A DNA stretch of 64,000 bases from a virus: UHGV virus genome UHGV-0212009. One strand, given 5' to 3'. The translations under genes were made by a program, and so were the position numbers. Positions 25,642-43,263 of this stretch are shown here, in pieces (the stretch's first letter is position 1; every line of letters begins with the position of its first letter). The notes below the pieces were generated by a model. It did no database searches. It was not told where the DNA came from and worked only from the letters and a program-made list of their open reading frames with translations.

Positions 25642-28600
25642 ATGGAGACATACAATAAGAAATACAAGATTGTCGCTCCTGATGGATACGTCGAGGAGTG
25701 GTCGCAAGCGGATTTTGAAAAAGGCGGAGCAGCGCTTATGTCTGATAATCCGGACGTCAAAGTATATAGTCAAGAATCATACGACCCGACGCAGCAGTAC
25801 GGAACGAATGTAGCGTATGGCATCGAGGACGAAGACGGGTATTTTGAATCATGGACTGCTGATGAATGGAGTAAAGGCAAAGATGCATTGCTTAAGGACC
25901 ACCCAAACCTCAAAATATATGTGCTTGGTGATGCCTCTCAGGACTATCATCGTCAAAAAGCAGAAGAACAGCGCCAGGCCATTACTGATTTTGATGCAGC
26001 GAATAAGGACTTTATTCGCGCACATGAGCTTGATTCGCTCATAATGAGTGAAGGCGGTGCAGTTAGTGCAGATTATGACGCTAACGATAAAAAATATAAT
26101 GATCTTCTTGCGGAGCGAGAGCAACTCGTATCGAACTATGCGACCAACCCAGCAAACAGGCAGGATTGGAGTGTAAGTGCCCAGTATGCAGACCAGATTG
26201 CATCCAATTATGAATCTAAACTCAAAGGCATGCGTGATGCTACGCGTTTCAGCAACGCTGCGACATCTATGTACTCTGGCAATATTCGTGAGAATAACGA
26301 CTATGTGTTGTACGAACAGGCGCGTAAACTTGCAAAGGACGCAGCGAAAGCTTATGCAGCACCTTCTTATGGTGAGCACACCGGCTTTGGTGGTTATGTC
26401 AAGGATATGGGCACAGGAGCTGGCAAAGTGTTTAGCGATGTTGACTTCTGGAGTCGTGGCTTATCTGCTATTGACCGAGATAAAAATGTGCGTAAGATTG
26501 TCAACTCGCTGTCTGAAAAAGGTATAAATGTTTTGGAGGCTACGGAAAAAGAGTTGTACGACAATCTTTCTCCGGCACAGATAGCTCTTATATCATCATT
26601 CTTGTTGGATGCTCAGGCACAATATGAGCGCTCGCTTGATACTGCTCGTGGATACAATGCCGGTGTCACGTTTGCGGAGTCCATAGGATATATGGCCGAG
26701 TTCCTTGCTACGGGCGGAATCGCGCGTGCTGTTGGCTCTGCCGGAAAGGCCGCATCGTCCGGGTTCGGCAAGCTGCTCGCAAATGAGCTCTCCAAAGGCA
26801 GCGAAGCGGCAATTAAGAGCAAAGTGTCACGGGGCCTAATTAACACCTTTACCAAGGGCGGCACAAAGTCTTTGAGCAAAAATGCAAAGGCGGCTACAAA
26901 TATAGCAAGCAAGGCAGCCGGAAAGGCATATTCTTATGGCATAAGACCAGCAGAAAGCGCTATATGGCACACAGCTCTGCAACCGTCCACATATAGAACC
27001 ATATCCGAGAATCTTACACAAATTAATGATAACGGTGATTTGGTAAAAGCCGGCTCCGCTATCTGGGGTGGAGTTCTCGACCAACTAATTGAAAACTGGT
27101 CCGAATCTATGGGTGGAGCCGTAGAGGACATTCTCGGACTGCCGCTCAAGGGCGTTGGCGCTGCTGGCGAGAAGATACTTGGCAAGACAACCCTTGGTCA
27201 GTGGGGGAAGTGGTTAGCAGATTCAGCGAGCGCCAAAGTACTGCACGAGGCAGGATTCAACGGTCTTATAGGTGAAATGGGAGAAGAGTGGCTTGGTAAT
27301 GCGGCTCGTGTTGGCCTTGACCTTATGACAAAGGATGAATTTAAGGACTTTGCCAGCTTCGAGTCTCAAGTGGATATGGCCGCATCTTTCGCGCCTATGA
27401 CCCTTTTTGGCCTTGGAACGTCATCATATGCAGCAGCCAAGCAAGATAAAAACTATAGAAAGCTTGCAAAAGACATGAGAGGCGTGCTTAATCGAGCCGG
27501 CTGGAGTGAGGAAGATGTAGCCGACGTGATGGATGTCAAGCACACAAAAGAGGAGATAGCTCGGACTCTTGCTCCAGTACTGCAAAGCATTGTCAGAAAT
27601 TCCCAAGACGGGAAAGTGGCACAAGAGGATTATATAACTACGCTTAAGTTCGCCCAGGCAGCAGCAATACAAGAAGTGCTTTCTTCCGCTCAGACAATAG
27701 AGCAGGAACGCGCTCGAAAAGAAATGCAAGAAGAAATCGCGCAGAACCTTGGAGCCGTGCCGCAAGAATTTAAGAATGAGGACGGGACTACTGTAATATA
27801 TCCTACCGACAATAGAGGAAACTTCTCATATACGCAGGTTGAGCAAACCCCTTCCGGTAATTACGGTGTAAATGTAGTAACGACCGCTAAGGATGCTAAA
27901 GGAGAGTATTTCGTCATTCCGGATGATGATTCGGATACAATGCTGCTCAAAAACCGTAACGATGCTAATGCGACACCTCGCTTTATAAGTCGCCAAGAGT
28001 TTCAAGAGCAAGTTGATGCCGGCTTAATGACAACGGAGACATCAACTCTTGACAATTATCTGGATGCAAGGATTGAAGAAAAACGCGAAATACAGCGCAA
28101 GGACGCCGAGAACGCGCAACTTGAAGACAAGTATCAGCAGGTAGCACAGAAGATGCAAGTCGGTTCTAAAATCAACGCCGGCACCGAGGATGCCCCTATG
28201 GAGGGCGTTGTGCTTGCCGTGGATAGAGGTGGCGTAACTGTTGATTTCGGACAGCCAGTGCTGTTGAATGGACGCAATATGCAAATCCACAAATTGTCAT
28301 TAGAGCAAGCAGGTAATTTTGTTGGTATTGATGCGCGGATAGAAAGCGAGCAGCGCTCAGTGGAAGAACAAGTGGAACAAGACGAGATTAATTCCGCCAA
28401 AGTAAAGGCTTACAATCAGTCACTTGCCGGTGAGCAGTTTACCGTTGACGGACATCTGTATACATATGTTCGCATGTTTGAAATGCCACAATTGGATGAG
28501 GATGGAATCGAAATAGCTCATATAGTGGCTACTGATGAGCAGGGACGAGATGTTGAAATGGACATTCCTTTGGAAGACATCAAAACGAGAGAGACAGATG

Positions 28601-31600
28601 CGGCCGTTAAAAACAACGAGCAGGTAGAGGAGGTAAAGGACGATAATGTGCTGCGTGACATCCATGGAAATCCTATCCCAATGCGTGTTAATGAAAAAAC
28701 GCAGCAGGAGGAGGTAGATAAACGTACCTTCAAGAATAAAGATCCTGAGGCATATTATGCCTGGAACGACGCTCAAAGAGGTGGCAATACTGAGGACTCC
28801 ATGCAGGCTATAACGGCTGATATTGCATCAGAAACGGCCCAATTGACCGCGTTACAGAAGCAGCTGACCGTAGAGACGGACCCTGATATGCGAGACGAGT
28901 TGCACGAGAGTGTCAATAAAACACAGAATCGAATCAATCTTCTTGAAGGCATATATCATAAATACGATGCTGAGAACAATTTCCAAGATGAACAACTAGA
29001 TTTTGCAAGACGCATTTATGACGTACAAAGCAAACTAATCAATGCCAAGACACAGGAACAAGTAGATGCGCTTATCAAGATTAAGGCGGACTTATTCCGC
29101 CAATATCAGCTCGCCACAGTGGATTCGGCAGAAAATGTAATGTTGGCCAAGAGAGCTGTTGAATTGCAGCAGGTGATTAATTCCGTTGCGGATGTCCCTG
29201 TGCAAGTAGTGTTTGAGAGTAATATAGAAGCCGTTATGCGTACAGATGGCGCATCCGAGGCAAGTATAAATCGCGTATTAAGCAAAGTGGCCGAACTGAG
29301 AAGTGCCCGTATTACATCGGGCAAAGACCTGGTTATGACCGGTTTGTATAATGAAGGCAAAGTTTATATCTTTGCTGAAGGTAATACTGATGCTTCTTCG
29401 GCTCTTTTGACCTACTATCACGAGAGGCAGCATATGCGTACTGCCGAGGATCCGGAAGCAATGAATAAGGTCCTTGTTCTTGCCAGAAATGAGCGAGACA
29501 ACCTCATACAGGTACTTAGCCTCTTGACTGATAATATCGCTCCGTATCAGGGCGCCAATAATCAGGAATTGGCGGACGAAATTGTTGCCTCCGCAATGGA
29601 AAAAGCATGCACGGACGAGAAATACGAACAAACACTGCGGAGCCGTGGTTTAAGTGAAGAATTAATCAATATAATTAAAACAGAATATGCAAAACAACGA
29701 AGAATTACAGACAGTGACGCTGTTCGACAGGAAGACTGGAATGCGAATGTCCGTACAAGTGACACCGGAAACGGCCAACAAGATGGCGCAGTTGAGCAAG
29801 GAGCATCCGGAAATGGACAGTTGGGCACTGCACAGCTTAGCACTGACACAGGAATAAGCGAAGAGGAGCCTCAGGTAGACACAACTCCACGTGATTTCCG
29901 TGGTAATCCACTTCCGCTCGAAGCAGACGGGACTACTGTTGATCAAAAGACCCTTTGGGAGAACGACCCGGAAGCCTGGGCTCGATGGAATGACGACATT
30001 AACAATGATGCCGGCGCAGACTCTATTGCATACATTAATGCAGTAATAGAGAAACTGAATAAAGCCATAAAGACCAACGAAAAGGCCTACGCTAAGGCTA
30101 CAGACTTCGATAAGCGAGACACGCTCAAAGGGCAGATTAAGGAAGAAAAGCAAAGACTGGACGAACTTCAGGCTATTCTTCGTGCATATCGTCAGAAGCA
30201 AAGCGAAGAGGCTAGCGCTAAAATGCAAGCCGACGCTGTGCGCGCAAGGGAAGCACGTAAAGCAAAGGCGGAGGAACTTGCGAAGTATAACACGGAATCG
30301 CTACAAGACGTCAAGAGAAAGTGGGAAGATGCTCCGAAGGATACCGGTGATGTGGATTCAATTGTTCTTGCTAACGGTGAGCGTATTGAGGGACATTATG
30401 TTCTCACGGAAGCATTTGCGCCTACTCCGTCACATGATCCTGTAGCCGGATACTCAATGACCAAAGGTTTCCCGGTTGATGAAAACGGCAATACTGTCAA
30501 CGACCGCGATTATCAGCATGACAAAGAAGCGCAGAGATTGGTCGAGCAGAAGGCATCATCATTTGACCAGCGGGCCCTTCAGACACCTGTAGTAGTAAGC
30601 AGCGACGGTGTTGTTCTATCAGGCAACGATAGGACAATGGCATCACAAATAGCAGCTCGACAAGGGACTGATAATAATTATAATACTTACCTTGCATCCC
30701 ATCCTCAGCGATTCGGATTTACGGCGGATCAAATTTCTAACTATAGCAATCCGCGTGTAGTATTTGTTCCCGACGCGCCAATGCCTTATACGGCAGCTAC
30801 GTTTGCCAAGTTCAATGCAGAGGAAAAAAAGACACAATCCAAGACCGAGAGCGCCGTCAAGGCAGGAAAGACAATCTCTCCGGAAGCAGTTGAGCATATT
30901 GCAATGATTGTCAACGAGCATGAATCAATCGCTGAGACCTATTCCGACAAAAATGCTGTAGCCGCTATACTCAGAATCCTTATTGATTCTGGTGTTGTTC
31001 AGGAGTCAGAGATTAGCCGCCTTATGGACGGAGATTCGCTATCTGGTACGGGAGAAGACCTTGTGGAAAGCGTTATCCTCGGTGCCGTGATGCGAGAGGA
31101 CGCGCTTAGGTGCGCAATGGGCGACAAGATGATAAGGCGGAGCGTAATGTCTGCTCTCACCCAGCTTCTCAAGAACAACACATACGGAGAGTATTCGCTT
31201 TCTGGAGAGTTCTCCGACGCGGTTGTGCTCTTGTATCAGGCCAAACGCAGCGGACTTGTCGAACCGGGAGAGAGTGTAGCAAACTTCATGAATCAGCCGG
31301 TTCTTGATGGATTCGGAGAGAATCCGCTTGCGGAGGTCACCGTGCAGATGCTTGCGAACACAATCAACGGAACGAAGGTCAATGGACTGAAAAATGTTCT
31401 ATCTTTATATAACGCAAGGGCGGAAATGGCAGCATCGGGACAGGCGGATTTGTTCCTTGGTTCCGTTGAGGCTAAAGAGCAAATTATCAGAGAAATACTC
31501 AATGAATATGGATACAACACAGAAACCTTCACAGCAGCCGCAGCAGAGCAGCGACCAGGACAACAATCCGAACAGCAATCAAAGCAAGGAAGTTCAGAAG

Positions 31601-34600
31601 AACAAGCTCCTGATGCTGTTTCAGGCGATGCAGGAAGCGGAGCAGAAGAAATAAACCAAGTTCGGGCGATTGAGGAACAACGAAAAGTTGTAGACACCGA
31701 GCCAACCGAAGCGCAGAAAGAAGCGGGTAATTATCGCATGGGCCACGTGCGAATAGATGGATTGGATATTACCATAGAGAACCCGCGGGGCAGCATACGT
31801 AAAGGTACAGATGCAGACGGTCATGAGTGGCAAACCGAAATGCATAATGACTATGGGTACATCCGCGGCACCAAGGCTGTGGATGACGACCATATTGATG
31901 TGTTCCTGTCAGACAACCCTACTCGGGGCAAAGTGTATGTTATCGACCAAGTGGATCCGAAGACCGGAGAGTTTGACGAGTCCAAGGTTATGTATGGCTT
32001 TGATTCGGAACAGGACGCAAGGGAAGCTTATCTGTCCAATTATGAAGATGACTGGCAAGGCCTTGGTAAAATCACCGAGGTTAGCAAAGAAGAGTTCAAG
32101 AAGTGGATTGATTCGTCCACACGGAAAACCAAGCCATTCAGCGAGTACAAGAGCGTAAAGCCTGAAAGTTTAGAGTCTCCAAAGACAGGTGCATTTGGAA
32201 CTATATACACCCAGTTCAAAGGCAAGCCACAAGAAGCTATTGCTTTCCTCCTCGAAAAGAAAGAGGGTGAAGCTGTGGGGGCATTGCACCATAAAGACAT
32301 TGGCGACATTGATTTGGTATGGGGAAAAGAAGGAACCGCCAAAAGCGACGGCTTTGGTCTTGCCAAACTCGCGAAATATCATCCAGAAGTTCTTGGTAAC
32401 CTGCAAGAGATACTTGATGCTATGGTTGTTGTCGATCGCACAGACAATCGTGTGCAACTGGAAAGCGAAACACACCAAGCATCAGTACGTCTAACATGGG
32501 ATAGTGAGAAAAAGAATTGGTTGCTTACTGCCTTTGAAAAGAAAAACAGTGTCTCCGACAATACGACAGACACTGTAGGAACCGCTGAAAGCGGCAAGCG
32601 GAATGACACAGCTACTCCGCAAAACACTGTTTCTGACGGCAAATTTACACAATCTTCTGAAGCAAAGCAAGAAAACGGAGAATTATCTGACTTCGCGACC
32701 GAAATATTTAACGACACACTCTCTGGTATTCCAGAGGAAGTAAGGGCACGTGTGACTGTCCGTGAAAGCAGCACGGGGGATGAAGTCGAAGAGAACTTCA
32801 TACAGTCCTATGACCTCGATGGCAAGCCGTCCGGAATCAGCAGGGTGGAACTAATCGATGCCAAGATAGACGAAAACCCGACAAGGTTTGTCATAGACGG
32901 TTCCGATGTTGACGCACCGAAGCCGGAACAAGAGCGGTGGCAGCGACTTGCCGATGAATATAAACAACTGAATCCTGAAGTAATAATCATTGACTGGGAG
33001 GAATCTGGCATCAGTTTTAGAACTTTCAGGGAGGCTTTGGATTTCCTTTCTTGGGCGGAATCATTCGACAAAGAGAATGATGCGGTTTCTTCTCAATCCT
33101 CTTATAAAAAAAATGAGCCTTTGAATAAAGCAGAAGATTCTCGTTTCCGCATAGTGGAGTCGACAGACGAGGAAATTCTTTCGGATTCGAATCAAAAAGA
33201 TTCAGAATACTTTGCTGCTATAGAACGTGGAGACATGGAAGAAGCGCAGCGTATAGTGAATGAATTTGCGCAGAAAGCAGGTTATACGACTATTTCTGAT
33301 TACCAAGGGACATCTGCATTTAATGGTGCAGCACCCTATGGCAACCCTTACTTCCTCACCAAGGAAGAACGTAAGGATGCCTGGGATAATGATGAGTTTG
33401 AAGGAGACCAGACATTAGGCGATTATATAGAACGGGGTATCGATGCGAATAACCTCGATTTCGTAGCCTTGGACCCTCGTAATTATCGTGCCGCCAACTC
33501 TATGCGCAAGGAGGCTATTGACAACGTGCGTAATGCCATCCAGAAGAGGAGCAAAACTATAACTATGTTTCGCAGTGTTCCTTCCGAAATAAAAGAGGGT
33601 TCGTTTAGAAATGGCGACTGGGTGACTCCAAGCCGTGCTTATGCGGTAGATAATGCCAAAATTCACGGTTGGGGGGATAACTATAATATCATTAAACAAA
33701 CGGTATCTGTAGACGAAATATGGTGGGATGGTAATGATATTGCTGAATGGGGCTATGGTCGTGAAGAAGATTATGTGAAAGACACAGACTTTGCCTATAA
33801 AAATACAAAAAATAATCGTAAGCTGCTTGATGTTATTACTCGTGATGATAAGGGGAATATAATTCCGCCGTCCAGAAGATTCGACTCGGGCAATGCGGAT
33901 GAAAGATACCAGATTTCTGGCAGGAAAGCCATCGACAAAAGTTCAGAAGAATCCAGAATCGCATACGAGGCTGTGAAGGAGCAACTAGATAGGATAGGAA
34001 TCCCTGTGGAATTGCTGTCGGATCAGGCGATGAGAGAAATGGCTATAAACGCAAATGCACTCGAAACCGTCTCCTCTCAAGATGAGTATCAACAAACCGT
34101 CGTTTCAAGTGCATCTGGAGCAAAGGTAATAAATAATTTGGATAATCTGGCTAAATCTCTTGAAAATGAGCCCAAAACTAAGGAGAAGACATTTTTGGGG
34201 GCATTAGCAAAAGCTCTTGATGCAAAGAAACACGGGAGCAATAGCCAGTATGCAACATTCGAAGCAAAGAATGGTACGGTTGTTACTATCAGACTTGCGA
34301 ACCACAATGTCGCTACTTCAACCTTTGATAACCATGGGGAGAATGATGGTATTAGTATAGTGGTTAGTGCTAGAAAGAATAATGGAATAATAAATGATGG
34401 CAAGGCTCATGTGACTGAATTCTATTACGATGCTATCAAACTTCGAAAAGCAGAGGGTAAACCGCTTGTAGATATAGTCAAATCTGTCAAGCAGTCTCTC
34501 TATAGTGGGGAATACAAGGACACCACTGGGCTTGCACAGCGCGAAGAGGTCAACGCCAAAGATGTGCCGGAATTTATGACCGTCTATCATGGCAGCGGTG

Positions 34601-37600
34601 CCAAGTTCGACAAATTCGACCACTCCCATATGGGTGAGGGTGAAGGAGTCCAGGCATATGGCTGGGGAACATACGTCACCGAGGTCGAAGGAATCGGTCG
34701 GACATACGCAAAGGCTATGGCCGCCAAAAACGACGGAGCTCTGCCGAAACGCAATCTTTACACCGTAGAAATTCCGGAGGATATAAATTCAGCTCTATCC
34801 AAGGATGAGATTTTGAAGGGGCTCGATAGTCTTGGCAAAGAATTATTTTCAGGATACGGCTTGAATGATGTGCAAATCAATGCTGTGTTCGGGACAACGC
34901 GAGAGTGGTATAAGTACGGATACACTGCAACAAGTGGCTTCTTTCCTCTAAAAGAAGCATTTAAGACCTATGGAATCGATGCAGAAACTATAGACAAGAG
35001 AATTCATGACGAGGCAATGGAAGACCGGCAAAAAAATCCAGCGGGATATGGATTTTACTTGAATTGGGCAGGTAGAATAGACATGTGGATTGAGAAGTTG
35101 GGTATCAGTGAGGATGAGTATGAACGCTATGACATGGCGACCGGCAGGGATGCATATCGTTATCTTGAGAGTAAACTAGGGGGCGCAAAAGAAGCCTCTG
35201 ATTATTTGTCAGATCACGGCTATGTTGGAATATCCTATCCAGCGCAGTACAGGTCCGGTGGGCGTTCTGATGGAGCCAGGAACTACGTCATCTTCAATGA
35301 GAATAACGCGAAGATAGTAGACCGCATCGAATTTCTGCGTGAGCCTGACGGAACAGTGTATGGCGCGACGGTGGGAGGAAAGATTTATCTCAATCGAGAG
35401 CGTCTGAATCCGAACACTCCAATCCACGAATACACCCACTTGTGGTTCTCCGCATTGAAAGACGCAAACCCTGAACTTTACAAAAGAGGCGTTGAGCTGA
35501 TGAAGCAGCTGCCTATATGGGAGGAAGTCAGGACTGACCCGAATTATGCGAACCTTTCTGGAGACGATGCGATAGCGAGCGAATGTCTTTCCCGCCTCGT
35601 CGGTGACAAGGGAGCGGATGTCCTTACAAAAATGGCTAAGGACGCGAATGTCAGGGGCGACATCATTGGTACGGCAAACAGAATTTCACTCATCGAAAAA
35701 TTCAAGGACTGGCTGAAGAAGTTCTGGACTTGGGTAAGGGATTCATTTACCCCATGGACTAAAGAAGAGGCTGCAAGGGTGTCAGTGGACGACATCCAGA
35801 ACATGGTGCTTTCTGACTTGGCAAAGGGTGTAAATCCTTTGGCCAACGCTCGGGAGGAATCAGAAATGAAGAAGACGAACGATAAGTACAATGATGACGA
35901 TTTTGAATATCTCATTAAGCGCAATCCTGGATCATTCGATGCTCCGGAAAACGGTATACGGTTCCGTATAGTTACCGAACCAAAACTAATTGAACAGCTA
36001 AACTTGGAGCCTACGGTAAAGGTATTCAGGGCAATGCAGATTGTTGATGGGGAACTCTTTCCTCCAATGTCGATTACAGTTAACGGTAAAAAACGCGAAC
36101 CATCAAAGATTGGACAATGGGAGCAGAGCGAAGAAAATCCGGAACTTGCTGACGAGGACGGATATTTCAAACTGAATAAGGGTAAAAACGACAATGGGAA
36201 GAATAAATCTCTGAAGGCAAAATATAACCCTTATTTCCACACATCATTGTTTCCTCTGAATGACCAGTTCAGCGAGGCGCAAACTCGTAGCAACATTGTT
36301 ATTGTTGAAGGCCGCGTACCAAAGAGTGAATTAACATCCGGCTATCGTGCTGAAAAGGCGAAGAATTCCGTTGGTAAGATGACTTGGCATTCCGGGCCTA
36401 TTGCAGGTATTCTTGGACAATATGAAGGCAAAGAACGTGAAGTTATCCTCTCTCGTTGGTTCAAGCCAGAAAGAATCGTTCCATACGACCAAATTGCTGA
36501 CCTTTCTGTCCAGATGTTCAAGGGGACCTCTCTTGAAAAGAATCCTCTTCCGTCGAATGTATTCCATCCCGATCTTCGAAATGAACTTGAGAAACGCGGC
36601 GTATCATTTGTGGAAACCAATAATCGGGGGCAGCTTCTTGATGATGCGGAAGGCCGGACTTGGTCCTCTCTTTACGGAAAGGAGGCTGCTGGCAAGAAAG
36701 CAAGAGTTGAGGCTAAAGAGCAGGATGTTGTAGACATATTCTACGACGAAGAGATGGAATTAGCTAATAAAATATTCAATAAGGAGCTGCAACAACAGAT
36801 TGATGGTAAGCTACCAAGCGACCATATATATAGAATGGGACAACCAGGAAGAATATTGCTGTCAACTGGTGTGCCAGATTTGCCTATACAAATGAACGCT
36901 TCAAGGCTTAAAACAAAAGCTACATCATATGGGCATGACTTTGAATTGAGTGAAATAAAGGATTTGGTAAAAGCATTGCAGACACCTTTGGCAGTATTCG
37001 CGTACGGTGATAAGTCAAAAGCACAGAATATAATTGTCCCATTGCAGAAAGACGGAAAGAATTTCATAGTCGGTTTGTCGCTCAACCCGACAGTTGGAGG
37101 AAGAAGCCTTGAAATCAACAGTATAAGGAATGTGTTCCCAAAAAACAACTATGAATGGTTGAATTGGATAAGCCAAGGCAAGACGTTGTATTTGAACAAA
37201 GAAAAAGTTCAAACCCTCATAAACCAACAGCGAACGATTCTCGCTGACGTGGAATATCTGGATTTGAACTCTGTTGCGAATATAGTAAAAAGCTTTGAGA
37301 ACCCAAGCGGTAATGAGAAAAATATTAAGGCTGCTGGCAAGAAGGTTGTCAAGACTCTTGCTGGTGTCCATAATATTACAGAAGAAAAACTTCGTAAGGC
37401 CCTAAAGTTAGGAGGCTTTGCCAATCCGAGTCTCGCCGTCATTGATACGGAGAAGAGCAACCATGAGAATTTCGGAGAGATTTCGCTGATAGCTCCGTCG
37501 GCTCTTGTTAACAAGGAGAGCGGCCGTACAGCTGGTACGTGGACTACTGATGCCTATACTCAGCGTTATCCTTCCGTGGAACGTCAGATGAGCGACAAAG

Positions 37601-40600
37601 GATATGAGGAGTTCTCTAAGTGGGTGGACGGTCTTGACTTTACAGACAGCGAAAAGGCTGAGATAAAGCGTCAGACAACGGATGCCCTTGAGGACAACCG
37701 TGAACCTGCCTGGGAGCTGATGTATCTGAAGGAAAAGGGTATTGACATCAAGGCGTATAGTTCTGACGTGAGCTATGGTTGGGAACCTGTTGCCGAGACT
37801 TATGGGAGTGTGGATGATGTGCTGAAAGCTATGGAGGGTGACGCAGAATTGGACGAGAAGATTCGGAACCTTGTCAAGGTAGAGATTGCTTCTCCATTGT
37901 TGAGCACAATCAGAAACACGATACGTCTTCAGATTTATGAAGAGACAGGCAAAGTGCCAAGTTCTTTCAATCTTGCTGTAACAAAAAGAGTACATGAGAT
38001 ATTTGACAAAGAGTATGCACCGAAGCTCTTTGACGAGAACGGTCAGGTAAAGTCGGAAGATGTCCGTAAGGTCGTTGGGGAAATGCTGGCAAAGTATAAT
38101 GACACTAAGCGTTTCAACTTCCAGAAGGCTAAGGCAAGGGCAAGTACTTATGTGCATAACAATGGAATGTATACAGACTATCTGAGATGGCAGGAAGAGA
38201 AACTTGAAGATTACGGCACAAAGGGCAGGATATTCCGTGGATACAATAGCGACGGTACTCGACGTTATTCTCCAGAGACTCTTGAGAACGTATCAAAGGC
38301 TATGTCGGAAAACGCTGAGGGCGAGACGAATGGCAGTGAGTATACCTCATTCGGTAGTTTCATCGCTAAGTTGGCTCCTCATGTAGACAGTACTGAGGAG
38401 ATGCGTAGCAGGAAGGACAAGTTGTCATCAGCAGACGATGAGAAGAAGGAATTCTACGACAAGTGGGAGGATACCTATTATGCTCTTGCCAAGGAGCTTT
38501 ACGATGATGTCTACTATGGCGAGAAGCGACTTCATGAGATCGTTTTGCAGCAAGACCCAAAGAGATACGCCAAGAAGGAATACGGCATCACGCTGAGTGC
38601 ATCCTTCATGAAGAATCTGGAGGCCCTAAAGAAGGCTATACGTGAAGACTTGAAGAGTCCGTACTTTGAGACCAAGTTTGAGCGTCCTGTGGGTTTGAAC
38701 GAGTTTGCGGCTGCTGTTGTGCCAGATGATTTGGGTGCTGACGTGAGGAAAATGTTGGACGAATCCGGCATTGCCTTGTATGAATATGACCCTGCCAAGG
38801 AGGGTGACCGCAGTAGGGCATTCAATGAGGCTCTTGAGGGTAATGATAAGATTCGCTTCCGTATCGTCGGTGGTAATAGCGGATATGTGGGGTACTCAAT
38901 GAGCAAGAGAGCGGCAGAGGCAAAGGAGGAAGGTCGTTTCCCTAAAACACAGTTCGTAAAGGAATATGGTGTGCCGGCTGCGCATCTTGATGCTCTCGTA
39001 GCTGCTGGCATTATTAGCAATGATGAGTGGCACCATACATCTAAATTTGGCAATAAAACTCCTTTCTATGGCTGGGTAGAGGATAGCTTCCTGCAAGCCT
39101 ATAATGACAATAAGGCCGCTATAGAAGAGATCATCGAACAGTATAATGGGACAGATCCTCTTTCTTTTACGGAAAGGCGGAAACTTACGGAAAAGATTGC
39201 GGCCATTATAGAAAGTTCAGAGAGCGTCGTATCAGCAAGAGAGCCGGCGGAGGCACTAATCGCTCAACGCGAAGCCGAGAAGGCCCACAGGCGCGATGTG
39301 ATGTCTGAAATGGCCAACAGCGATGGAAAAATCAAAAAGTCTGGTAATGAATATTGGTACAATGCAGATAATCAAGTTTCATTACACATGCACGATAATG
39401 GCCGGATTATAGATCTTGAATTCCCAATTGGCACGAAGACGCAATCTCAAAGGGATGAGTTATATAAGGCTGCCCAAGAGGAGTTCCGCGAAGCTTATGA
39501 GCGCGCAGAAAAGATCCTCCAGGATAAGGAGAACGAAAACTTCGAAGAACCAAAGCAGACACCCGATGTGGAATCTTCCGAAAGTCGTTTCAGGGCTGTT
39601 AAGTCATACGACGGATTACAGTCGTTTGGGCAAGACAAGCTGTTTGACATCATGCACAAGACTTTTGCGGATCTCCCGGAAAGCACGCGAGCCAAGATTA
39701 CAAAACTTGCCCCTGCTCATGGGTACAAGTTCCATGAAGCGACGGCTGATTACTTTGCATCCCTGGCGACCAAAAAAGACTTGTCCGAGGAGGAAAAGAT
39801 GGATGTTATGGTGGTACGCGATAACATAAAAGCCGCATTGGATATTGACTGTTTGTCGTGTAGTGAGACTCTTTGGGCTCTTTATAATACGGTTAATAAA
39901 AACTCTAAAGACATTCTTTCAATCGCACGTAGGACTCTTGTGGCGGATAAACTTGGCTTTATGCCGGAGGACAGAAGCAAACGAGATGATGTCAAAGATG
40001 GCGTACGTTTCTCAATCCGAGAGAACTCTCATGATGCATCTGCCGCGGAGATTTACAACAAGGCAACGTCTTATTGGTATAATCGTCTCCGAGAGAGTTA
40101 TGTCGATATGAATGAGTCCGTAAACGACCTTGTGGCCGCTATTGAATCGACTACCAAGCAGCCGGCACAGGCGTTTGAGGATGTTAGGCTTGCCATTAAT
40201 CGTCAGTCTTCCAAGGGTCTTAATCAGATGACAAAGTTCATGTCTGACTATTTGGAGCCAATGTGGGGCGCTGTCGGCAAAGTGATGGAAACTACAGGAA
40301 TGACCTACGATGAAGTCGTGCGTTATGTGATGCTCAAGCATGCGGTAGAGCGTAACGATGTATTTGCTCGTAGAGATGCACGGCGGTTCTATGAGAGGAA
40401 GTGTGATTCCATTATCAGCAAACTGAAGGACGAGAAAAAGCAGAAAGAGAATATGCGGAAGAGAGCAATGGCTAATGCCGAAATATCTATCGCATATGCG
40501 CTTGATCAGGAAATCCAAAACATTGATAAGCGAATTGATTCTGCTTTGAAAGCTCTTGACCGCCAGCTTGTGAAGGTTGATAATGGGACTTCGACCAAGT

Positions 40601-43263
40601 ATAAAGAACTCCGCGAGCAGGATTATGGCGGATTGACTTCTATGTATTCGAAGTATCCTGGGCTTGGTGCGCGTTCTGATTATGCAACTGATGAAGAGTA
40701 TAATAAGGCTGCGAGAAAGATAAGAGTGCCTATGTATGATAATGTATCAGACATGGAGAATGCTGCCAGAAGCGAAGTCAACGCCTTTGAAAAGCGCACT
40801 TCCGGAGATGAGTTTAATGAGCTGTGGCGCAGAATCAATGCCGCTACGAAAAAAACTCTTGAAAGCCAGTACGATAATAACATAATATCGAGGGAGCAAT
40901 ACAAGGCTGCACGAGACCAATTCAAGTATTATGTCCCATTGAGGGGATTCAAGGATACGGAAGCCGAAGATATATGGACATATATGGATGTTAGTCTTTC
41001 TGGTAGTTTTGCCCCTGCTCTCAAGAACGCTAAGGGGCGCAAGAGCGAGGCGGAAAATCCATTCAATTGGATTGGCACAATGGCTTCATCTGCCATTGCT
41101 CAGAACGTCAAGAACGAAGCAAAGCTTGCACTTTATTATTTCATTGCAAATCGCCCTAATCAGGACTTGGTAACGATTGGTAAGGTGTGGTATCAGTATG
41201 ATGCAGCAGCAACGGCAGCGCACGCAGCAGCAAATCCGGGTGACACAAAGAAGATATTCACACCGGTTTACCCTCCTGTCACAACCGGGCTTGACAGTAA
41301 TGCGGCCAAGGACGCATACGATACGTGGGAAGCGGATATGAGAGCCAAAGCTGCTGCTGGAGAAGCTTATCAGAGAACCAATAAACTCAACGTACAGGAT
41401 GATGTGGCGTTTATCAGTGATAAGCAGATACCACAACATGTGATTAAACTCAAAGTACGCGGCGAAGAAGTGAACCTGTACATCAACGGCGATCCAAGGG
41501 CAGCACAAGCTATCAATGGAATGCTGAACGTAGAGACCAACAGCGGATACCAGAAAGTGTTCGGGCCTATTCTTCGTTGGATGTCAGCCGTAAACACCAG
41601 TTACAACCCTGAGTTCTGGATTTCAAACTTGCAGCGAGATTTCTTGTTCGCATTAATGTCTTCCTCGATTACAGGAGAAGGAGCGAACAATCTGCTTAAG
41701 GGATTTGTTAATCCGAAGAAGATTATGCAGATGATGCGTGATTACGAAGCTGGAAAACTTGGCAATAGCAGAGAAGAAAATTATTACCGCGAATTTGCTG
41801 AGGGAGGAGGTATCACCGGCTTTACTGTTATTGTCGGCAATGAAGTCTGGGAGAAGAAAATTCAGGAATACTTAAATCCGTCCGATTTTGCTAAGATTTC
41901 AAAGTCTATCAAGTTCGACAAGTTCCTTAAATTCTTTAACGATCTTGGCGAAGCAGTTGAGCAGATGTCCAGATTTGCAGCATTCATTGGTGCCAGAGAG
42001 ACGGGAAAGAGTATAGAGGAAGCCGTGGCCGCATCAAAGGAGATTACGGTTAATTTCAATAGAAAAGGCTCCGGCAAGGCTGTTGACTGGGCGGATTTGG
42101 ATAAGCTTACTACTGCCGATGGTGCGAAACTTAATAAGGCGCAGAAGCTTGCCGTATTTACCGCTTCATTCATTCCTGCTTATGGAAGACGCTTTATAAT
42201 GTTCTTCAATGCGGCTGTACAGGGAGCAAATGCTATGTATAAGCTATGGAAAAAAGACCATCGCAAGACGCTCGCCTGGGCATCAGGATATTTTGCGATA
42301 GGCGTATTGCAGGCCGTCTTACATGCTCTCGCGGATGACGATGATGATTATCTTGATATTCCGGACTACACCAGACGAAGCAACCTTCTTCTTGGAGGTG
42401 GCGGTATTTATTTCAAGTGGGCATTGCCACAGGAAATGAGACCATTCTATGCGTGGGGGGATATTTTTGTTAATCAAGTTATGGGCAGGGAGCCTAATAA
42501 GAACATGCTGCTTGAGATGGCGAATTCTGCTGCTGACATATTACCGTTGGGGCCGGGAGGCGTCTTGCCGTCCGTTATACAGCCTTCATGGGACCTGTAC
42601 ACGAATAAAGACTTTACCGGAAGTCGGATTTACAATGACAACAAGTACCGCTCCGATGCAGAGCGTGAAGCACGGCCGAACTATAAGGATCCGCGTCCTC
42701 AGACGAATAAACTCTTCATCGATATATCACAGGTTCTTAATGCGCTGAGCGGAGGTGACGAGTATAGTGCCGGAGCTGTGAATGTTCACCCTGAATCGAT
42801 GCAGCACGTCGTTGAATCCCTTGGTGGTGGTTTACTTACAACCATGAATAAGACGGAAGAAACCGTAGCGGGGGCTCTGGGGGCCATTATTGGTGAGGAT
42901 ATGATAGACCAGGACCTTTCTGTGCGGCGGTTCCCGTTCCTTAATCGCGTCCTGATGGTCAATGATGAGCGTACTCGCAATTCTCATGTATCGGATTTGT
43001 ATTATTACTACAAAGATATGTCCGACGTGGTGGAGGATAAGATGCGTAGGATGAAAAAGGAGATGAATTATGATGCTCTTGAAAAACTGCAAAACAGTCC
43101 CGAATACGAGGTTTATCAAATCGTCAAAAGCTATAAGAAGATGATGCAGCGATATGACGATGATTTGAAAGCCGAAGAGGATCGTAATGAGCGCAAGAAT
43201 ATAATGCAAGAACAAGACGAGTTGCGAAAGGAGATGATTAATGAAATATCTCAAACGCGATAA
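25642..43263 (+). CDS. Giant polyvalent protein (5873 aa)
   Basis: By eye: two HExxH zincin motifs (29419, 35425), DdrB/ParB-like (~30370-30850), inorganic pyrophosphatase-like (~31700-32160), PBECR-like (~32190-32545), ART-like YHGS (~34580), MuF-C-like (~36760-37200), LPD38-like C-terminus. Confidence 0.9.
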   Translation: METYNKKYKIVAPDGYVEEWSQADFEKGGAALMSDNPDVKVYSQESYDPTQQYGTNVAYGIEDEDGYFESWTADEWSKGKDALLKDHPNLKIYVLGDASQDYHRQKAEEQRQAITDFDAANKDFIRAHELDSLIMSEGGAVSADYDANDKKYNDLLAEREQLVSNYATNPANRQDWSVSAQYADQIASNYESKLKGMRDATRFSNAATSMYSGNIRENNDYVLYEQARKLAKDAAKAYAAPSYGEHTGFGGYVKDMGTGAGKVFSDVDFWSRGLSAIDRDKNVRKIVNSLSEKGINVLEATEKELYDNLSPAQIALISSFLLDAQAQYERSLDTARGYNAGVTFAESIGYMAEFLATGGIARAVGSAGKAASSGFGKLLANELSKGSEAAIKSKVSRGLINTFTKGGTKSLSKNAKAATNIASKAAGKAYSYGIRPAESAIWHTALQPSTYRTISENLTQINDNGDLVKAGSAIWGGVLDQLIENWSESMGGAVEDILGLPLKGVGAAGEKILGKTTLGQWGKWLADSASAKVLHEAGFNGLIGEMGEEWLGNAARVGLDLMTKDEFKDFASFESQVDMAASFAPMTLFGLGTSSYAAAKQDKNYRKLAKDMRGVLNRAGWSEEDVADVMDVKHTKEEIARTLAPVLQSIVRNSQDGKVAQEDYITTLKFAQAAAIQEVLSSAQTIEQERARKEMQEEIAQNLGAVPQEFKNEDGTTVIYPTDNRGNFSYTQVEQTPSGNYGVNVVTTAKDAKGEYFVIPDDDSDTMLLKNRNDANATPRFISRQEFQEQVDAGLMTTETSTLDNYLDARIEEKREIQRKDAENAQLEDKYQQVAQKMQVGSKINAGTEDAPMEGVVLAVDRGGVTVDFGQPVLLNGRNMQIHKLSLEQAGNFVGIDARIESEQRSVEEQVEQDEINSAKVKAYNQSLAGEQFTVDGHLYTYVRMFEMPQLDEDGIEIAHIVATDEQGRDVEMDIPLEDIKTRETDAAVKNNEQVEEVKDDNVLRDIHGNPIPMRVNEKTQQEEVDKRTFKNKDPEAYYAWNDAQRGGNTEDSMQAITADIASETAQLTALQKQLTVETDPDMRDELHESVNKTQNRINLLEGIYHKYDAENNFQDEQLDFARRIYDVQSKLINAKTQEQVDALIKIKADLFRQYQLATVDSAENVMLAKRAVELQQVINSVADVPVQVVFESNIEAVMRTDGASEASINRVLSKVAELRSARITSGKDLVMTGLYNEGKVYIFAEGNTDASSALLTYYHERQHMRTAEDPEAMNKVLVLARNERDNLIQVLSLLTDNIAPYQGANNQELADEIVASAMEKACTDEKYEQTLRSRGLSEELINIIKTEYAKQRRITDSDAVRQEDWNANVRTSDTGNGQQDGAVEQGASGNGQLGTAQLSTDTGISEEEPQVDTTPRDFRGNPLPLEADGTTVDQKTLWENDPEAWARWNDDINNDAGADSIAYINAVIEKLNKAIKTNEKAYAKATDFDKRDTLKGQIKEEKQRLDELQAILRAYRQKQSEEASAKMQADAVRAREARKAKAEELAKYNTESLQDVKRKWEDAPKDTGDVDSIVLANGERIEGHYVLTEAFAPTPSHDPVAGYSMTKGFPVDENGNTVNDRDYQHDKEAQRLVEQKASSFDQRALQTPVVVSSDGVVLSGNDRTMASQIAARQGTDNNYNTYLASHPQRFGFTADQISNYSNPRVVFVPDAPMPYTAATFAKFNAEEKKTQSKTESAVKAGKTISPEAVEHIAMIVNEHESIAETYSDKNAVAAILRILIDSGVVQESEISRLMDGDSLSGTGEDLVESVILGAVMREDALRCAMGDKMIRRSVMSALTQLLKNNTYGEYSLSGEFSDAVVLLYQAKRSGLVEPGESVANFMNQPVLDGFGENPLAEVTVQMLANTINGTKVNGLKNVLSLYNARAEMAASGQADLFLGSVEAKEQIIREILNEYGYNTETFTAAAAEQRPGQQSEQQSKQGSSEEQAPDAVSGDAGSGAEEINQVRAIEEQRKVVDTEPTEAQKEAGNYRMGHVRIDGLDITIENPRGSIRKGTDADGHEWQTEMHNDYGYIRGTKAVDDDHIDVFLSDNPTRGKVYVIDQVDPKTGEFDESKVMYGFDSEQDAREAYLSNYEDDWQGLGKITEVSKEEFKKWIDSSTRKTKPFSEYKSVKPESLESPKTGAFGTIYTQFKGKPQEAIAFLLEKKEGEAVGALHHKDIGDIDLVWGKEGTAKSDGFGLAKLAKYHPEVLGNLQEILDAMVVVDRTDNRVQLESETHQASVRLTWDSEKKNWLLTAFEKKNSVSDNTTDTVGTAESGKRNDTATPQNTVSDGKFTQSSEAKQENGELSDFATEIFNDTLSGIPEEVRARVTVRESSTGDEVEENFIQSYDLDGKPSGISRVELIDAKIDENPTRFVIDGSDVDAPKPEQERWQRLADEYKQLNPEVIIIDWEESGISFRTFREALDFLSWAESFDKENDAVSSQSSYKKNEPLNKAEDSRFRIVESTDEEILSDSNQKDSEYFAAIERGDMEEAQRIVNEFAQKAGYTTISDYQGTSAFNGAAPYGNPYFLTKEERKDAWDNDEFEGDQTLGDYIERGIDANNLDFVALDPRNYRAANSMRKEAIDNVRNAIQKRSKTITMFRSVPSEIKEGSFRNGDWVTPSRAYAVDNAKIHGWGDNYNIIKQTVSVDEIWWDGNDIAEWGYGREEDYVKDTDFAYKNTKNNRKLLDVITRDDKGNIIPPSRRFDSGNADERYQISGRKAIDKSSEESRIAYEAVKEQLDRIGIPVELLSDQAMREMAINANALETVSSQDEYQQTVVSSASGAKVINNLDNLAKSLENEPKTKEKTFLGALAKALDAKKHGSNSQYATFEAKNGTVVTIRLANHNVATSTFDNHGENDGISIVVSARKNNGIINDGKAHVTEFYYDAIKLRKAEGKPLVDIVKSVKQSLYSGEYKDTTGLAQREEVNAKDVPEFMTVYHGSGAKFDKFDHSHMGEGEGVQAYGWGTYVTEVEGIGRTYAKAMAAKNDGALPKRNLYTVEIPEDINSALSKDEILKGLDSLGKELFSGYGLNDVQINAVFGTTREWYKYGYTATSGFFPLKEAFKTYGIDAETIDKRIHDEAMEDRQKNPAGYGFYLNWAGRIDMWIEKLGISEDEYERYDMATGRDAYRYLESKLGGAKEASDYLSDHGYVGISYPAQYRSGGRSDGARNYVIFNENNAKIVDRIEFLREPDGTVYGATVGGKIYLNRERLNPNTPIHEYTHLWFSALKDANPELYKRGVELMKQLPIWEEVRTDPNYANLSGDDAIASECLSRLVGDKGADVLTKMAKDANVRGDIIGTANRISLIEKFKDWLKKFWTWVRDSFTPWTKEEAARVSVDDIQNMVLSDLAKGVNPLANAREESEMKKTNDKYNDDDFEYLIKRNPGSFDAPENGIRFRIVTEPKLIEQLNLEPTVKVFRAMQIVDGELFPPMSITVNGKKREPSKIGQWEQSEENPELADEDGYFKLNKGKNDNGKNKSLKAKYNPYFHTSLFPLNDQFSEAQTRSNIVIVEGRVPKSELTSGYRAEKAKNSVGKMTWHSGPIAGILGQYEGKEREVILSRWFKPERIVPYDQIADLSVQMFKGTSLEKNPLPSNVFHPDLRNELEKRGVSFVETNNRGQLLDDAEGRTWSSLYGKEAAGKKARVEAKEQDVVDIFYDEEMELANKIFNKELQQQIDGKLPSDHIYRMGQPGRILLSTGVPDLPIQMNASRLKTKATSYGHDFELSEIKDLVKALQTPLAVFAYGDKSKAQNIIVPLQKDGKNFIVGLSLNPTVGGRSLEINSIRNVFPKNNYEWLNWISQGKTLYLNKEKVQTLINQQRTILADVEYLDLNSVANIVKSFENPSGNEKNIKAAGKKVVKTLAGVHNITEEKLRKALKLGGFANPSLAVIDTEKSNHENFGEISLIAPSALVNKESGRTAGTWTTDAYTQRYPSVERQMSDKGYEEFSKWVDGLDFTDSEKAEIKRQTTDALEDNREPAWELMYLKEKGIDIKAYSSDVSYGWEPVAETYGSVDDVLKAMEGDAELDEKIRNLVKVEIASPLLSTIRNTIRLQIYEETGKVPSSFNLAVTKRVHEIFDKEYAPKLFDENGQVKSEDVRKVVGEMLAKYNDTKRFNFQKAKARASTYVHNNGMYTDYLRWQEEKLEDYGTKGRIFRGYNSDGTRRYSPETLENVSKAMSENAEGETNGSEYTSFGSFIAKLAPHVDSTEEMRSRKDKLSSADDEKKEFYDKWEDTYYALAKELYDDVYYGEKRLHEIVLQQDPKRYAKKEYGITLSASFMKNLEALKKAIREDLKSPYFETKFERPVGLNEFAAAVVPDDLGADVRKMLDESGIALYEYDPAKEGDRSRAFNEALEGNDKIRFRIVGGNSGYVGYSMSKRAAEAKEEGRFPKTQFVKEYGVPAAHLDALVAAGIISNDEWHHTSKFGNKTPFYGWVEDSFLQAYNDNKAAIEEIIEQYNGTDPLSFTERRKLTEKIAAIIESSESVVSAREPAEALIAQREAEKAHRRDVMSEMANSDGKIKKSGNEYWYNADNQVSLHMHDNGRIIDLEFPIGTKTQSQRDELYKAAQEEFREAYERAEKILQDKENENFEEPKQTPDVESSESRFRAVKSYDGLQSFGQDKLFDIMHKTFADLPESTRAKITKLAPAHGYKFHEATADYFASLATKKDLSEEEKMDVMVVRDNIKAALDIDCLSCSETLWALYNTVNKNSKDILSIARRTLVADKLGFMPEDRSKRDDVKDGVRFSIRENSHDASAAEIYNKATSYWYNRLRESYVDMNESVNDLVAAIESTTKQPAQAFEDVRLAINRQSSKGLNQMTKFMSDYLEPMWGAVGKVMETTGMTYDEVVRYVMLKHAVERNDVFARRDARRFYERKCDSIISKLKDEKKQKENMRKRAMANAEISIAYALDQEIQNIDKRIDSALKALDRQLVKVDNGTSTKYKELREQDYGGLTSMYSKYPGLGARSDYATDEEYNKAARKIRVPMYDNVSDMENAARSEVNAFEKRTSGDEFNELWRRINAATKKTLESQYDNNIISREQYKAARDQFKYYVPLRGFKDTEAEDIWTYMDVSLSGSFAPALKNAKGRKSEAENPFNWIGTMASSAIAQNVKNEAKLALYYFIANRPNQDLVTIGKVWYQYDAAATAAHAAANPGDTKKIFTPVYPPVTTGLDSNAAKDAYDTWEADMRAKAAAGEAYQRTNKLNVQDDVAFISDKQIPQHVIKLKVRGEEVNLYINGDPRAAQAINGMLNVETNSGYQKVFGPILRWMSAVNTSYNPEFWISNLQRDFLFALMSSSITGEGANNLLKGFVNPKKIMQMMRDYEAGKLGNSREENYYREFAEGGGITGFTVIVGNEVWEKKIQEYLNPSDFAKISKSIKFDKFLKFFNDLGEAVEQMSRFAAFIGARETGKSIEEAVAASKEITVNFNRKGSGKAVDWADLDKLTTADGAKLNKAQKLAVFTASFIPAYGRRFIMFFNAAVQGANAMYKLWKKDHRKTLAWASGYFAIGVLQAVLHALADDDDDYLDIPDYTRRSNLLLGGGGIYFKWALPQEMRPFYAWGDIFVNQVMGREPNKNMLLEMANSAADILPLGPGGVLPSVIQPSWDLYTNKDFTGSRIYNDNKYRSDAEREARPNYKDPRPQTNKLFIDISQVLNALSGGDEYSAGAVNVHPESMQHVVESLGGGLLTTMNKTEETVAGALGAIIGEDMIDQDLSVRRFPFLNRVLMVNDERTRNSHVSDLYYYYKDMSDVVEDKMRRMKKEMNYDALEKLQNSPEYEVYQIVKSYKKMMQRYDDDLKAEEDRNERKNIMQEQDELRKEMINEISQTR
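29687..29857 (+). CDS. Candidate overprinted 56-aa ORF (+1 frame)
   Basis: AT-rich leader AATATAATTAAAACAGAAT-ATG; MQNNEELQTVTLFDRKTGMRMSVQVTPETANKMAQLSKEHPEMDSWALHSLALTQE. Confidence 0.5.
   Translation: MQNNEELQTVTLFDRKTGMRMSVQVTPETANKMAQLSKEHPEMDSWALHSLALTQE
31508..31654 (+). CDS. Candidate overprinted 48-aa ORF (+1 frame)
   Basis: MDTTQKPSQQ...KNKLLMLFQAMQEAEQKK spanning a linker of the giant protein. Confidence 0.4.
   Translation: MDTTQKPSQQPQQSSDQDNNPNSNQSKEVQKNKLLMLFQAMQEAEQKK
32537..32670 (-). ncRNA. Candidate antisense sRNA A with promoter and terminator
   Basis: TTG-N20-TAAATTTG (32670-32640), internal hairpins, ACAGTGTCT/AGACACTGT stem and U-run. Confidence 0.65.
34047..34128 (-). 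ncRNA. Candidate antisense sRNA B
   Basis: TACCTTTG (34128-34121), 13-bp closing stem 34055-67/34102-14; weak -33 and weak U tail. Confidence 0.5.
37198..37306 (-). ncRNA. Candidate antisense sRNA C with promoter and terminator
   Basis: TTG-N19-TATATTCG, AGTTCAAA/TTTGAACT closing stem, inner CAGCGA/TCGCTG, U-run. Confidence 0.6.

Follow-up and report, generated by a model that had tools for sequence, protein, structure and literature searches.

The stretch of DNA analysed here (the window; 64,000 nucleotides of the virus genome UHGV-0212009) is a temperate phage region with integrase, terminase, portal, and tail fibre genes, and the phage that it belongs to is temperate, gut-type, and Bacteroidota-type. 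Its plus strand holds an open reading frame of 17.6 kb (25642–43263) that encodes 5,873 amino acids and is flanked by the portal gene and an internal-virion-protein-like gene, the latter recognised by a weak match (E 9e-4). Pfam domain matches within the product comprise ParB, InPase, PBECR1, MuF_C, PBECR5, and LPD38. By the definition of Iyer et al., this giant protein counts as polyvalent, and it is probably packaged in the virion and injected. According to that study, which predicts RNase activity for them, PBECR domains reach a share of up to 26% among polyvalent proteins (PMC5512222). Its section 19 names no immunity partner for PBECR domains, and the terms antisense, small RNA, and noncoding have zero occurrences in its main text (PMC5512222).

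The PBECR1 domain (PF18809) of the giant protein spans residues 2214–2303 (32281–32550, plus strand) and was matched with an E-value of 6e-9 and 36.7 bits, against a Pfam cut-off of 27.6. This match gives a name to the PBECR-like RNase that a first-pass annotation of the same DNA had placed beside a putative small RNA. Its key residues are the histidine of a KYHPE motif, which lies in a helix, and the C-terminal threonine of WLLT; both are conserved, and a loose pattern for the catalytic histidine matched 147 of 152 domains when it was set against retention of the RNA described below. The structure model of the domain (pLDDT 89) has no Foldseek match at E <= 0.001, and its fold neighbours, BECR toxins led by BrnT (Z 5.7), CdiA NC101 (Z 5.2), and colicin D (Z 4.7), are all weak, so that the RNase activity of this domain is a prediction. 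A search for PBECR1 in plasmids found no match.

All elements of the candidate RNA, called RNA A here, lie on the minus strand and wholly within the giant open reading frame. RNA A is predicted to be around 100 nt long (32537–32636), with ends inferred from a promoter and a U tract (32546–32537), and it is oriented towards PBECR1 so that its 3' end lies over the last codons of the domain. Read from 32636 to 32537, it folds at -37.0 kcal/mol with a z-score of -4.3 (1 of 200 shuffled sequences folded equally well), and the z-score weakens to -2.3 once the promoter is added. A closing stem, P1, pairs 32623–32634 with 32553–32542 just ahead of the U tract, and it encloses the hairpin P2 (GCGGAG/TTCCGC; 32598–32620), the variable and optional hairpin P3 (CCGCT/AGCGG; 32581–32595, pair span 32594–32582), and the hairpin P4 (32554–32580). 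P2 and P4 each end in a loop of 13 bases, L2 (32615–32603; NNAGCNGUGUCAY) and L4 (32573–32561; RUGUCYGUCSUNN). The multi-branched fold and the 2 hairpins P2 and P3 had been proposed in the first-pass annotation, and both hairpins are indeed present on the minus strand, while the fold itself is borne out by its z-score and by covariation of P1, P2, and P4. The opposite, plus-strand reading of the unit was rejected since its fold is weaker and comes without a terminator-like site. The sequence is a single unit in which only the 5-base GUGUC recurs. An Rfam search returned nothing real in the window, in a 5-kb region (E up to 5, where chance matches appear at E about 1), or in 10 loci, and ARAGORN found 0 tRNAs in the unit.

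The promoter of RNA A consists of a TTG at the -33 position (32668–32670, minus strand) and, 20 bases from it, the -7 element TAAATTTG (32640–32647, minus strand). Together they match TAnnTTTG with an upstream TTG, which we take to be the Bacteroidota promoter consensus, so that the consensus-matching promoter of the earlier reading holds up, both in the window and across homologues. Only 5 sites combining TTG with a TAAATTTG-type box exist on the minus strand of the 64 kb, that of RNA A among them. Outside the sigma-70 set discussed next, 74 of 86 motif-bearing units had TAnnTTTG at a distance of 32–41 bases from the loop motif, and 72 of the 74 homologues with a -7 box also had a TTG in the expected zone. 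Six loci from bins named outside Bacteroidota (L071, L076, L091, L092, L107, and L112) have Bacteroidota-type promoters on their units, and these are probably mis-binned phage contigs. Units from other hosts have TAnnnT at the matching place in 28 of 31 cases, compared with 13.8% of random windows, and these sigma-70-type units often have a TTGACA-like element too. The promoter type thus appears, from these sequences, to follow the host from Bacteroidota type to sigma-70 type. A promoter retuned to the host would be hard to explain unless a transcript were made, and RNA A is therefore likely to be transcribed.

To place RNA A among its relatives, homologues were collected in scans that yielded 57 viral loci, 16 more viral loci, 8 annotated phages, 79 genome loci (from the best 80 of 139), and 80 metagenome loci (the best 80 of 375). 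Together they gave 250 domain matches, 152 of them non-redundant, from which we kept 56 units that were less than 86% alike and bore the loop motif; 54 were aligned, and L170 and L102 were left out for their long 3' insertions. Over the 54 homologues, the 28 named base pairs were paired in 87.4% of cells, compared with 64.0 +/- 0.8% after shuffling and 38–48% after sliding the strands, and 26 of the 28 pairs showed two-sided compensatory changes. These changes affected all 7 counted pairs of P1 (83% of cells paired), all 5 pairs of P2 (99.6% paired), and all 7 stem pairs of P4. P3 was paired in 55.6% of cells, and 19 of 52 homologues had no room for it. RNAalifold predicted P1, P2, and P4 without guidance.

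What the first-pass annotation had missed, and what is new here, is a contact between the loops L2 and L4. L2 pairs through its first 3 bases with the last 3 of L4, and through its last 3 bases with the first 3 of L4; these 6 pairs were formed in 98.5% of cells, a value reached by 0 of 500 shuffles and far from the 20–53% of slid controls. On a FastTree tree of the domains with 52 rows (L074, L234, L052, and L054 were left out because the loop finder had misplaced L4), positions L2-2 and L4-12 undergo 13 changes each, with only 14 joint changes, and positions L2-12 and L4-2 change 3 and 3 times, with 3 joint changes, compared with 16–28 joint changes required by control column pairs. The contact could be made within one molecule or between molecules, as the covariation is compatible with either.

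The same alignment bears on the idea that the RNA is a conformational switch. As had been noted, the 3' segment ACACTGTTT (32552–32544) can pair either with the 5' segment AAACAGTGT (32632–32624) or locally, and both folds are possible in the window sequence, at -37.0 and -32.7 kcal/mol, respectively. We nevertheless abandoned the switch as a family trait because the local hairpin, 4.3 kcal/mol weaker than the P1 fold here, can form in only 27 of 52 homologues, and P1 shows compensatory changes in 7 of 7 pairs.

Since the loop motif had been used to select the units, its conservation is circular in that set, and we therefore chose tails by amino acid sequence for a codon test. Among 81 tails with the peptide DTA, aspartate was encoded by GAC in 81 and alanine by GCT in 81, and the aspartate of TDT-like motifs was GAC in 74 of 74; within the domains themselves, the control frequencies were 260 of 662 for GAC (39%) and 207 of 691 for GCT (30%). 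These tails are related and not independent events, and by record titles they come from several phyla. The loop motif lies in frame nearly everywhere, but L103 and L137 have it in a different frame. A conserved peptide as the explanation was rejected on these two grounds, the fixed silent sites and the differing frames. L106 (3349–3450) has a frameshift and a stop codon within its RNA unit, and both loops and the stems are intact there. For 28 of the 56 units, the mean fold z-score was -3.0 for the RNA and -2.3 for its sense strand, compared with -0.8 for sequence within the domain and 0.0 for sequence past the promoter.

Comparison with 16 close relatives showed that likeness stops at 32643–32690, i.e., at the promoter, whose -7 element also marks where the exchangeable cassette ends on its downstream side; PBECR1 domain, RNA, and promoter travel together as one cassette. 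Such a border, together with the nearly constant reading frame of the unit, would also be expected if there were no functional transcript and the unit acted at the DNA level, as a cruciform or a recombination site through which domains are shuffled, or if it came along with a conserved peptide linker; contigs of relatives from 8 runs showed no start, end, or strand of a transcript. We consider this explanation very improbable: it accounts neither for the host-matched promoter swap nor for the single fixed strand with its many G-U pairs, and the fixed silent sites, the frame changes, and the loop-loop covariation likewise stand against it.

A model of the RNA, R1, matched 55 of 55 close viral loci and gave 80 strong matches in 100 further loci, every one of them on the minus strand. 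Directly behind PBECR1 lay 78 of these matches, tandem domains included (in L123 and L074, each of the tandem PBECR1 domains bears its own RNA copy), and 2 lay behind PBECR3-like and PBECR2 domains. In these latter cases (L087:2124–2216 and L108:553–646, minus strand), the RNA scaffold carries altered loops, and a loop-loop pair that is fixed as A-U elsewhere is G-C in L087. R1 had no further match across the rest of the window and none beyond the seed in 150 sampled Bacteroidia genomes. The RNA is also present, with sigma-70-type promoters, in 2 cultured phages, the temperate Bordetella phage BPP-1 (bbp10; L058:2849–2943, minus strand) and Pseudomonas phage Itty13 (L060:1855–1949, minus strand), which makes its function directly testable. 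In the Itty13 record, the genes annotated over the unit run on the other strand from the PBECR1 match, pointing to a mis-annotation.

RNA A is accompanied by 2 further units within the giant gene. Unit B (34050–34128, minus strand) combines the box TACCTTTG with a P1-closed RNA (z-score -3.1) on the N-terminal side of domain B (34150–34551, plus strand), an unnamed conserved domain with an R-x-x-x-H core. Both the box and a varying closing stem were present in 8 of 8 distinct homologues, and the unit points away from the coding sequence of domain B. For domain B itself, Pfam, atlas, and Foldseek searches (E <= 0.001; model pLDDT 63) gave no match, and a profile comparison with PBECR1 was negative. 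Unit C (37200–37284, minus strand) directly follows the MuF_C domain (36919–37212, plus strand of the gene) and consists of the promoter-like TATATTCG and a long hairpin RNA (z-score -6.2); in 15 of 18 distinct homologues its box lies 72–81 bases past MuF_C, with varying stems. The folds of units A, B, and C differ from one another, one fold per kind of domain. A rule of one unit per domain is not universal since the gene's PBECR5 match lacks an RNA unit of its own. Elsewhere in 34 giant open reading frames, antisense -7 boxes were mildly above expectation (63 compared with 45 after codon shuffling), and 8 of 62 such boxes had a z-score <= -2.5, with peptides that resemble unit B or C. Two single giant genes have antisense boxes at domain ends, at 657, 1644, 4023, 5736, and 6294 in L097 and at 746, 1865, 3212, and 3395 in L074, several of them with very strong folds (z-scores down to -7.7). 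Within the window, a fourth, weak candidate with an imperfect box lies at 29365 (minus strand), where the N-terminal part of the giant protein is encoded (z-score -3.0 over 60 bases); it may be a chance finding among 39 sites tested.

PBECR1 also occurs outside giant proteins. At two solo PBECR1 genes (L145:1980–2580 and L146:1283–1800), a convergent promoter lies beyond the stop codon together with a folded RNA, and the convergent RNA meets the 3' end of the gene at a terminator hairpin; no obvious immunity open reading frame was seen at these 2 loci. L063:1501–1990, a solo or C-terminal PBECR1 gene, likewise has a convergent promoter and a folded RNA beyond its stop, and the folded RNAs at all 3 loci differ from model R1. 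PBECR1 was further found in 51 of 60 sampled genomes of one Helicobacter-type genus, with up to 15 matches each (L298–L327). R1 gave 0 matches on 30 loci of this genus, and distant clades of PBECR1 have other loop sequences. Behind the Helicobacter-genus domains, the tails often bear an extended -10-like box in antisense, along with a three-stem fold (P1-P2-P4) whose loops are different; in an uncontrolled count, 13 of 28 tails reached a z-score <= -2. In H. pylori, the RNAs HPnc2240 and HPnc2250 are listed as antisense to HP0488, and HPnc5970 and HPnc6000 as antisense to HP1116, in the table of a review that cites Sharma 2010 for them (PMC8322730). Both HP0488 and HP1116 carry the annotation DUF3519 in a further source (PMC10593804), HP1116 is named together with jhp1044 in a phage annotation that lies under a PBECR1 match, and jhp1044 proteins have four PBECR domains in the account of Iyer et al. 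(PMC5512222). As a lead, the H. pylori antisense RNAs of HP0488 and HP1116 might be related to the RNA A family, a candidate link that runs through the gene and not through the position of the RNA.

One alternative, conceivable above all for the solo genes, is a cis-antisense role of the type I kind, in which the RNA would pair with the mRNA of the giant gene or its transcription would collide with the convergent one. Leaky transcripts of the toxic domain would then be cut or stalled in the lysogen, and the fold would provide stability and a kissing-loop start. RNA A is perfectly complementary to the giant-gene mRNA by its position, its promoter is of a constitutive type, and it ends in a U tract; the convergent RNAs of L145 and L146 meet the 3' end of their genes in a convergent, type I-like layout, and the H. 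pylori RNAs of such genes are catalogued as antisense RNAs in the list cited above (PMC8322730). We nonetheless regard this explanation as rather unlikely. The complementarity of a cis-antisense RNA is automatic, and neither the constraint on the loops nor their contact would be expected because of this. It leaves unexplained the invariant loop bases at silent sites, an L2-L4 contact that occupies both loops while both RNA ends are locked in P1, the fact that each domain has its own RNA with a fold specific to it, and the location of unit B outside its domain. Moreover, an antisense RNA would be powerless against protein that has already been made or injected.

Our preferred interpretation, which the pattern of conservation makes somewhat probable, is that the minus-strand RNA is a conserved antitoxin RNA that binds and blocks the predicted RNase PBECR1. 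Fixed loop sequences, the loop-loop contact, and domain-specific folds indirectly favour protein binding over mRNA pairing, as the first-pass annotation had also proposed, since a docking ligand needs a fixed sequence, a tertiary contact, and one-per-domain specificity, and cis-antisense action needs none of these. Docking and antisense pairing could also act together. From a housekeeping promoter, the RNA would be made both in lysogens and shortly after the phage DNA has entered, independently of the late gene, and its fold would be a compact junction, three-way or four-way, in which the 2 GUGUC-bearing loops touch. These touching loops might form the docking face for the active site of the RNase, possibly as a substrate or tRNA-elbow decoy. 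In this way, the RNA may protect the cell during synthesis of the giant protein, shut down the injected domain after entry of the phage DNA, and shield lysogens from kin phages, a timing scheme that we infer. It would be an RNA antidote hidden within the gene of its toxin: placed antisense in a linker, it would allow toxin and immunity to be swapped within one reading frame, which has no place for the gene of an immunity protein.

Every point in favour of protein binding applies equally if the RNA served the domain as a cofactor or scaffold and not as an inhibitor, be it as part of a packaged and injected ribonucleoprotein, in head-organising rings, or as an effector, e.g., a decoy against host RNA-sensing defence. 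The loop-loop covariation fits intermolecular pairs equally well, and the pRNA of phi29 is known to form rings through loop-loop pairs. RNA binding has moreover been suggested for inactive MuF-C by Iyer et al. in section 19 (PMC5512222), and unit C follows MuF_C. We judge such a role improbable: a housekeeping promoter uncoupled from the late genes suits protection more than assembly, and solo genes outside giant proteins have such RNAs too. A role as guide RNA was rejected, as the lone variable arm, P3, is short, self-paired, and often absent.

If RNA A is an antitoxin, then a cognate RNA would explain how such RNases can be made and shuffled without death of the host, and with it PBECR domains could be cloned and their substrates might be guessed. 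More broadly, we tentatively entertain, without thinking it probable as a whole, that polyvalent proteins hold hidden RNA genes, with one antisense, tertiary-folded partner under a host-tuned promoter for each PBECR or MuF-C module. In them, virion-injected RNases would have their missing immunity factors; the HP0488 and HP1116 RNAs of H. pylori would belong to these, and the RNA of PBECR1 would be a tRNA-elbow-shaped decoy or a ring-forming ligand. If true, this would be the first case in which immunity to delivered polymorphic toxins rests on RNA, and something categorically new; it would extend RNA antitoxins past ToxN and AbiF to virion-delivered effectors, and would let the RNAs reveal the natural targets of PBECR nucleases. 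Structured RNAs that lie antisense in coding linkers would escape intergenic screens.

On the sequence evidence, RNA A represents a real, undescribed family of structured RNAs without an Rfam match; our literature search found no description of it, with subscription journals and the supplements of preprints (bioRxiv) outside its scope. Among known systems, the families ToxIN, AbiQ, CptIN, and TenpIN are listed as type III toxin-antitoxin systems (PMC5086642). As far as the sources used here describe these systems, they share with RNA A the link of an endoribonuclease, here a predicted one, to a small RNA with a pseudoknot-type contact that is conserved with the toxin clade. Unlike their antitoxins, however, RNA A lacks tandem repeats; it is encoded downstream on the opposite strand and has a promoter of its own instead of lying upstream in one operon with a terminator in between; and it is a junction with a loop-loop contact instead of an H-type pseudoknot. 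The toxin differs as well, being a BECR-fold domain in a giant virion protein for which Pfam gives PBECR1 and no ToxN homologue. The earlier description as type III-like is thus apt for the pseudoknotted RNA and not for the repeats, the upstream operon, or a toxin of the ToxN/CptN/TenpN family: RNA A would work in the manner of a type III antitoxin, yet these three defining features are absent and it is not a member.

The AbiF/RCd22 system of a C. difficile prophage, in which a structured RNA neutralises an RNase-type toxin by binding it directly (PMC12373285), is a precedent outside ToxN for the role proposed here. There, however, the toxin is an Abi_2/AbiD/F protein related to Cas13, and RCd22 is described as lying upstream on the same strand with two repeated motifs and attenuation in cis (PMC12373285). 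Type I systems such as yonT/SR6, in the descriptions available to us, are similar in having an antisense, convergent RNA of around 100 nt with its own promoter, and the solo PBECR1 genes show the same arrangement. A convergent RNA that meets the 3' end of the toxin gene is the layout of known type I loci, as in txpA/RatA with its convergent antitoxin RNA. Unlike in type I systems, there is no small-peptide toxin, RNA A lies in the middle of a 17.6-kb gene, and the loop sequence and tertiary contact of its family are conserved across phyla; a small stand-alone toxin open reading frame is absent for RNA A and was seen only in the solo relatives L145 and L146.

In tRNAs, the D and T loops touch to form the elbow, and the molecules have a CCA end as well as T- and D-loop motifs. 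RNA A has four arms, and its second and fourth loops touch as in this elbow, so that of the tRNA mimicry proposed earlier the topology stands, and the topology alone: ARAGORN and Rfam searches came back empty, and RNA A is without a CCA end or a T- or D-loop motif, has loops of 13 bases, and treats its third arm as optional. The giant protein is an ordinary member of the PBECR-bearing polyvalent proteins as the main text of Iyer et al. 2017 presents them (PMC5512222), and it also invites comparison with another class of phage toxins. MuF polymorphic toxins carry phage head-associated toxin domains whose immunity comes from a downstream protein gene. Here, too, a head-associated toxin domain would need a cognate immunity factor, and the candidate for it is an RNA inside the gene.
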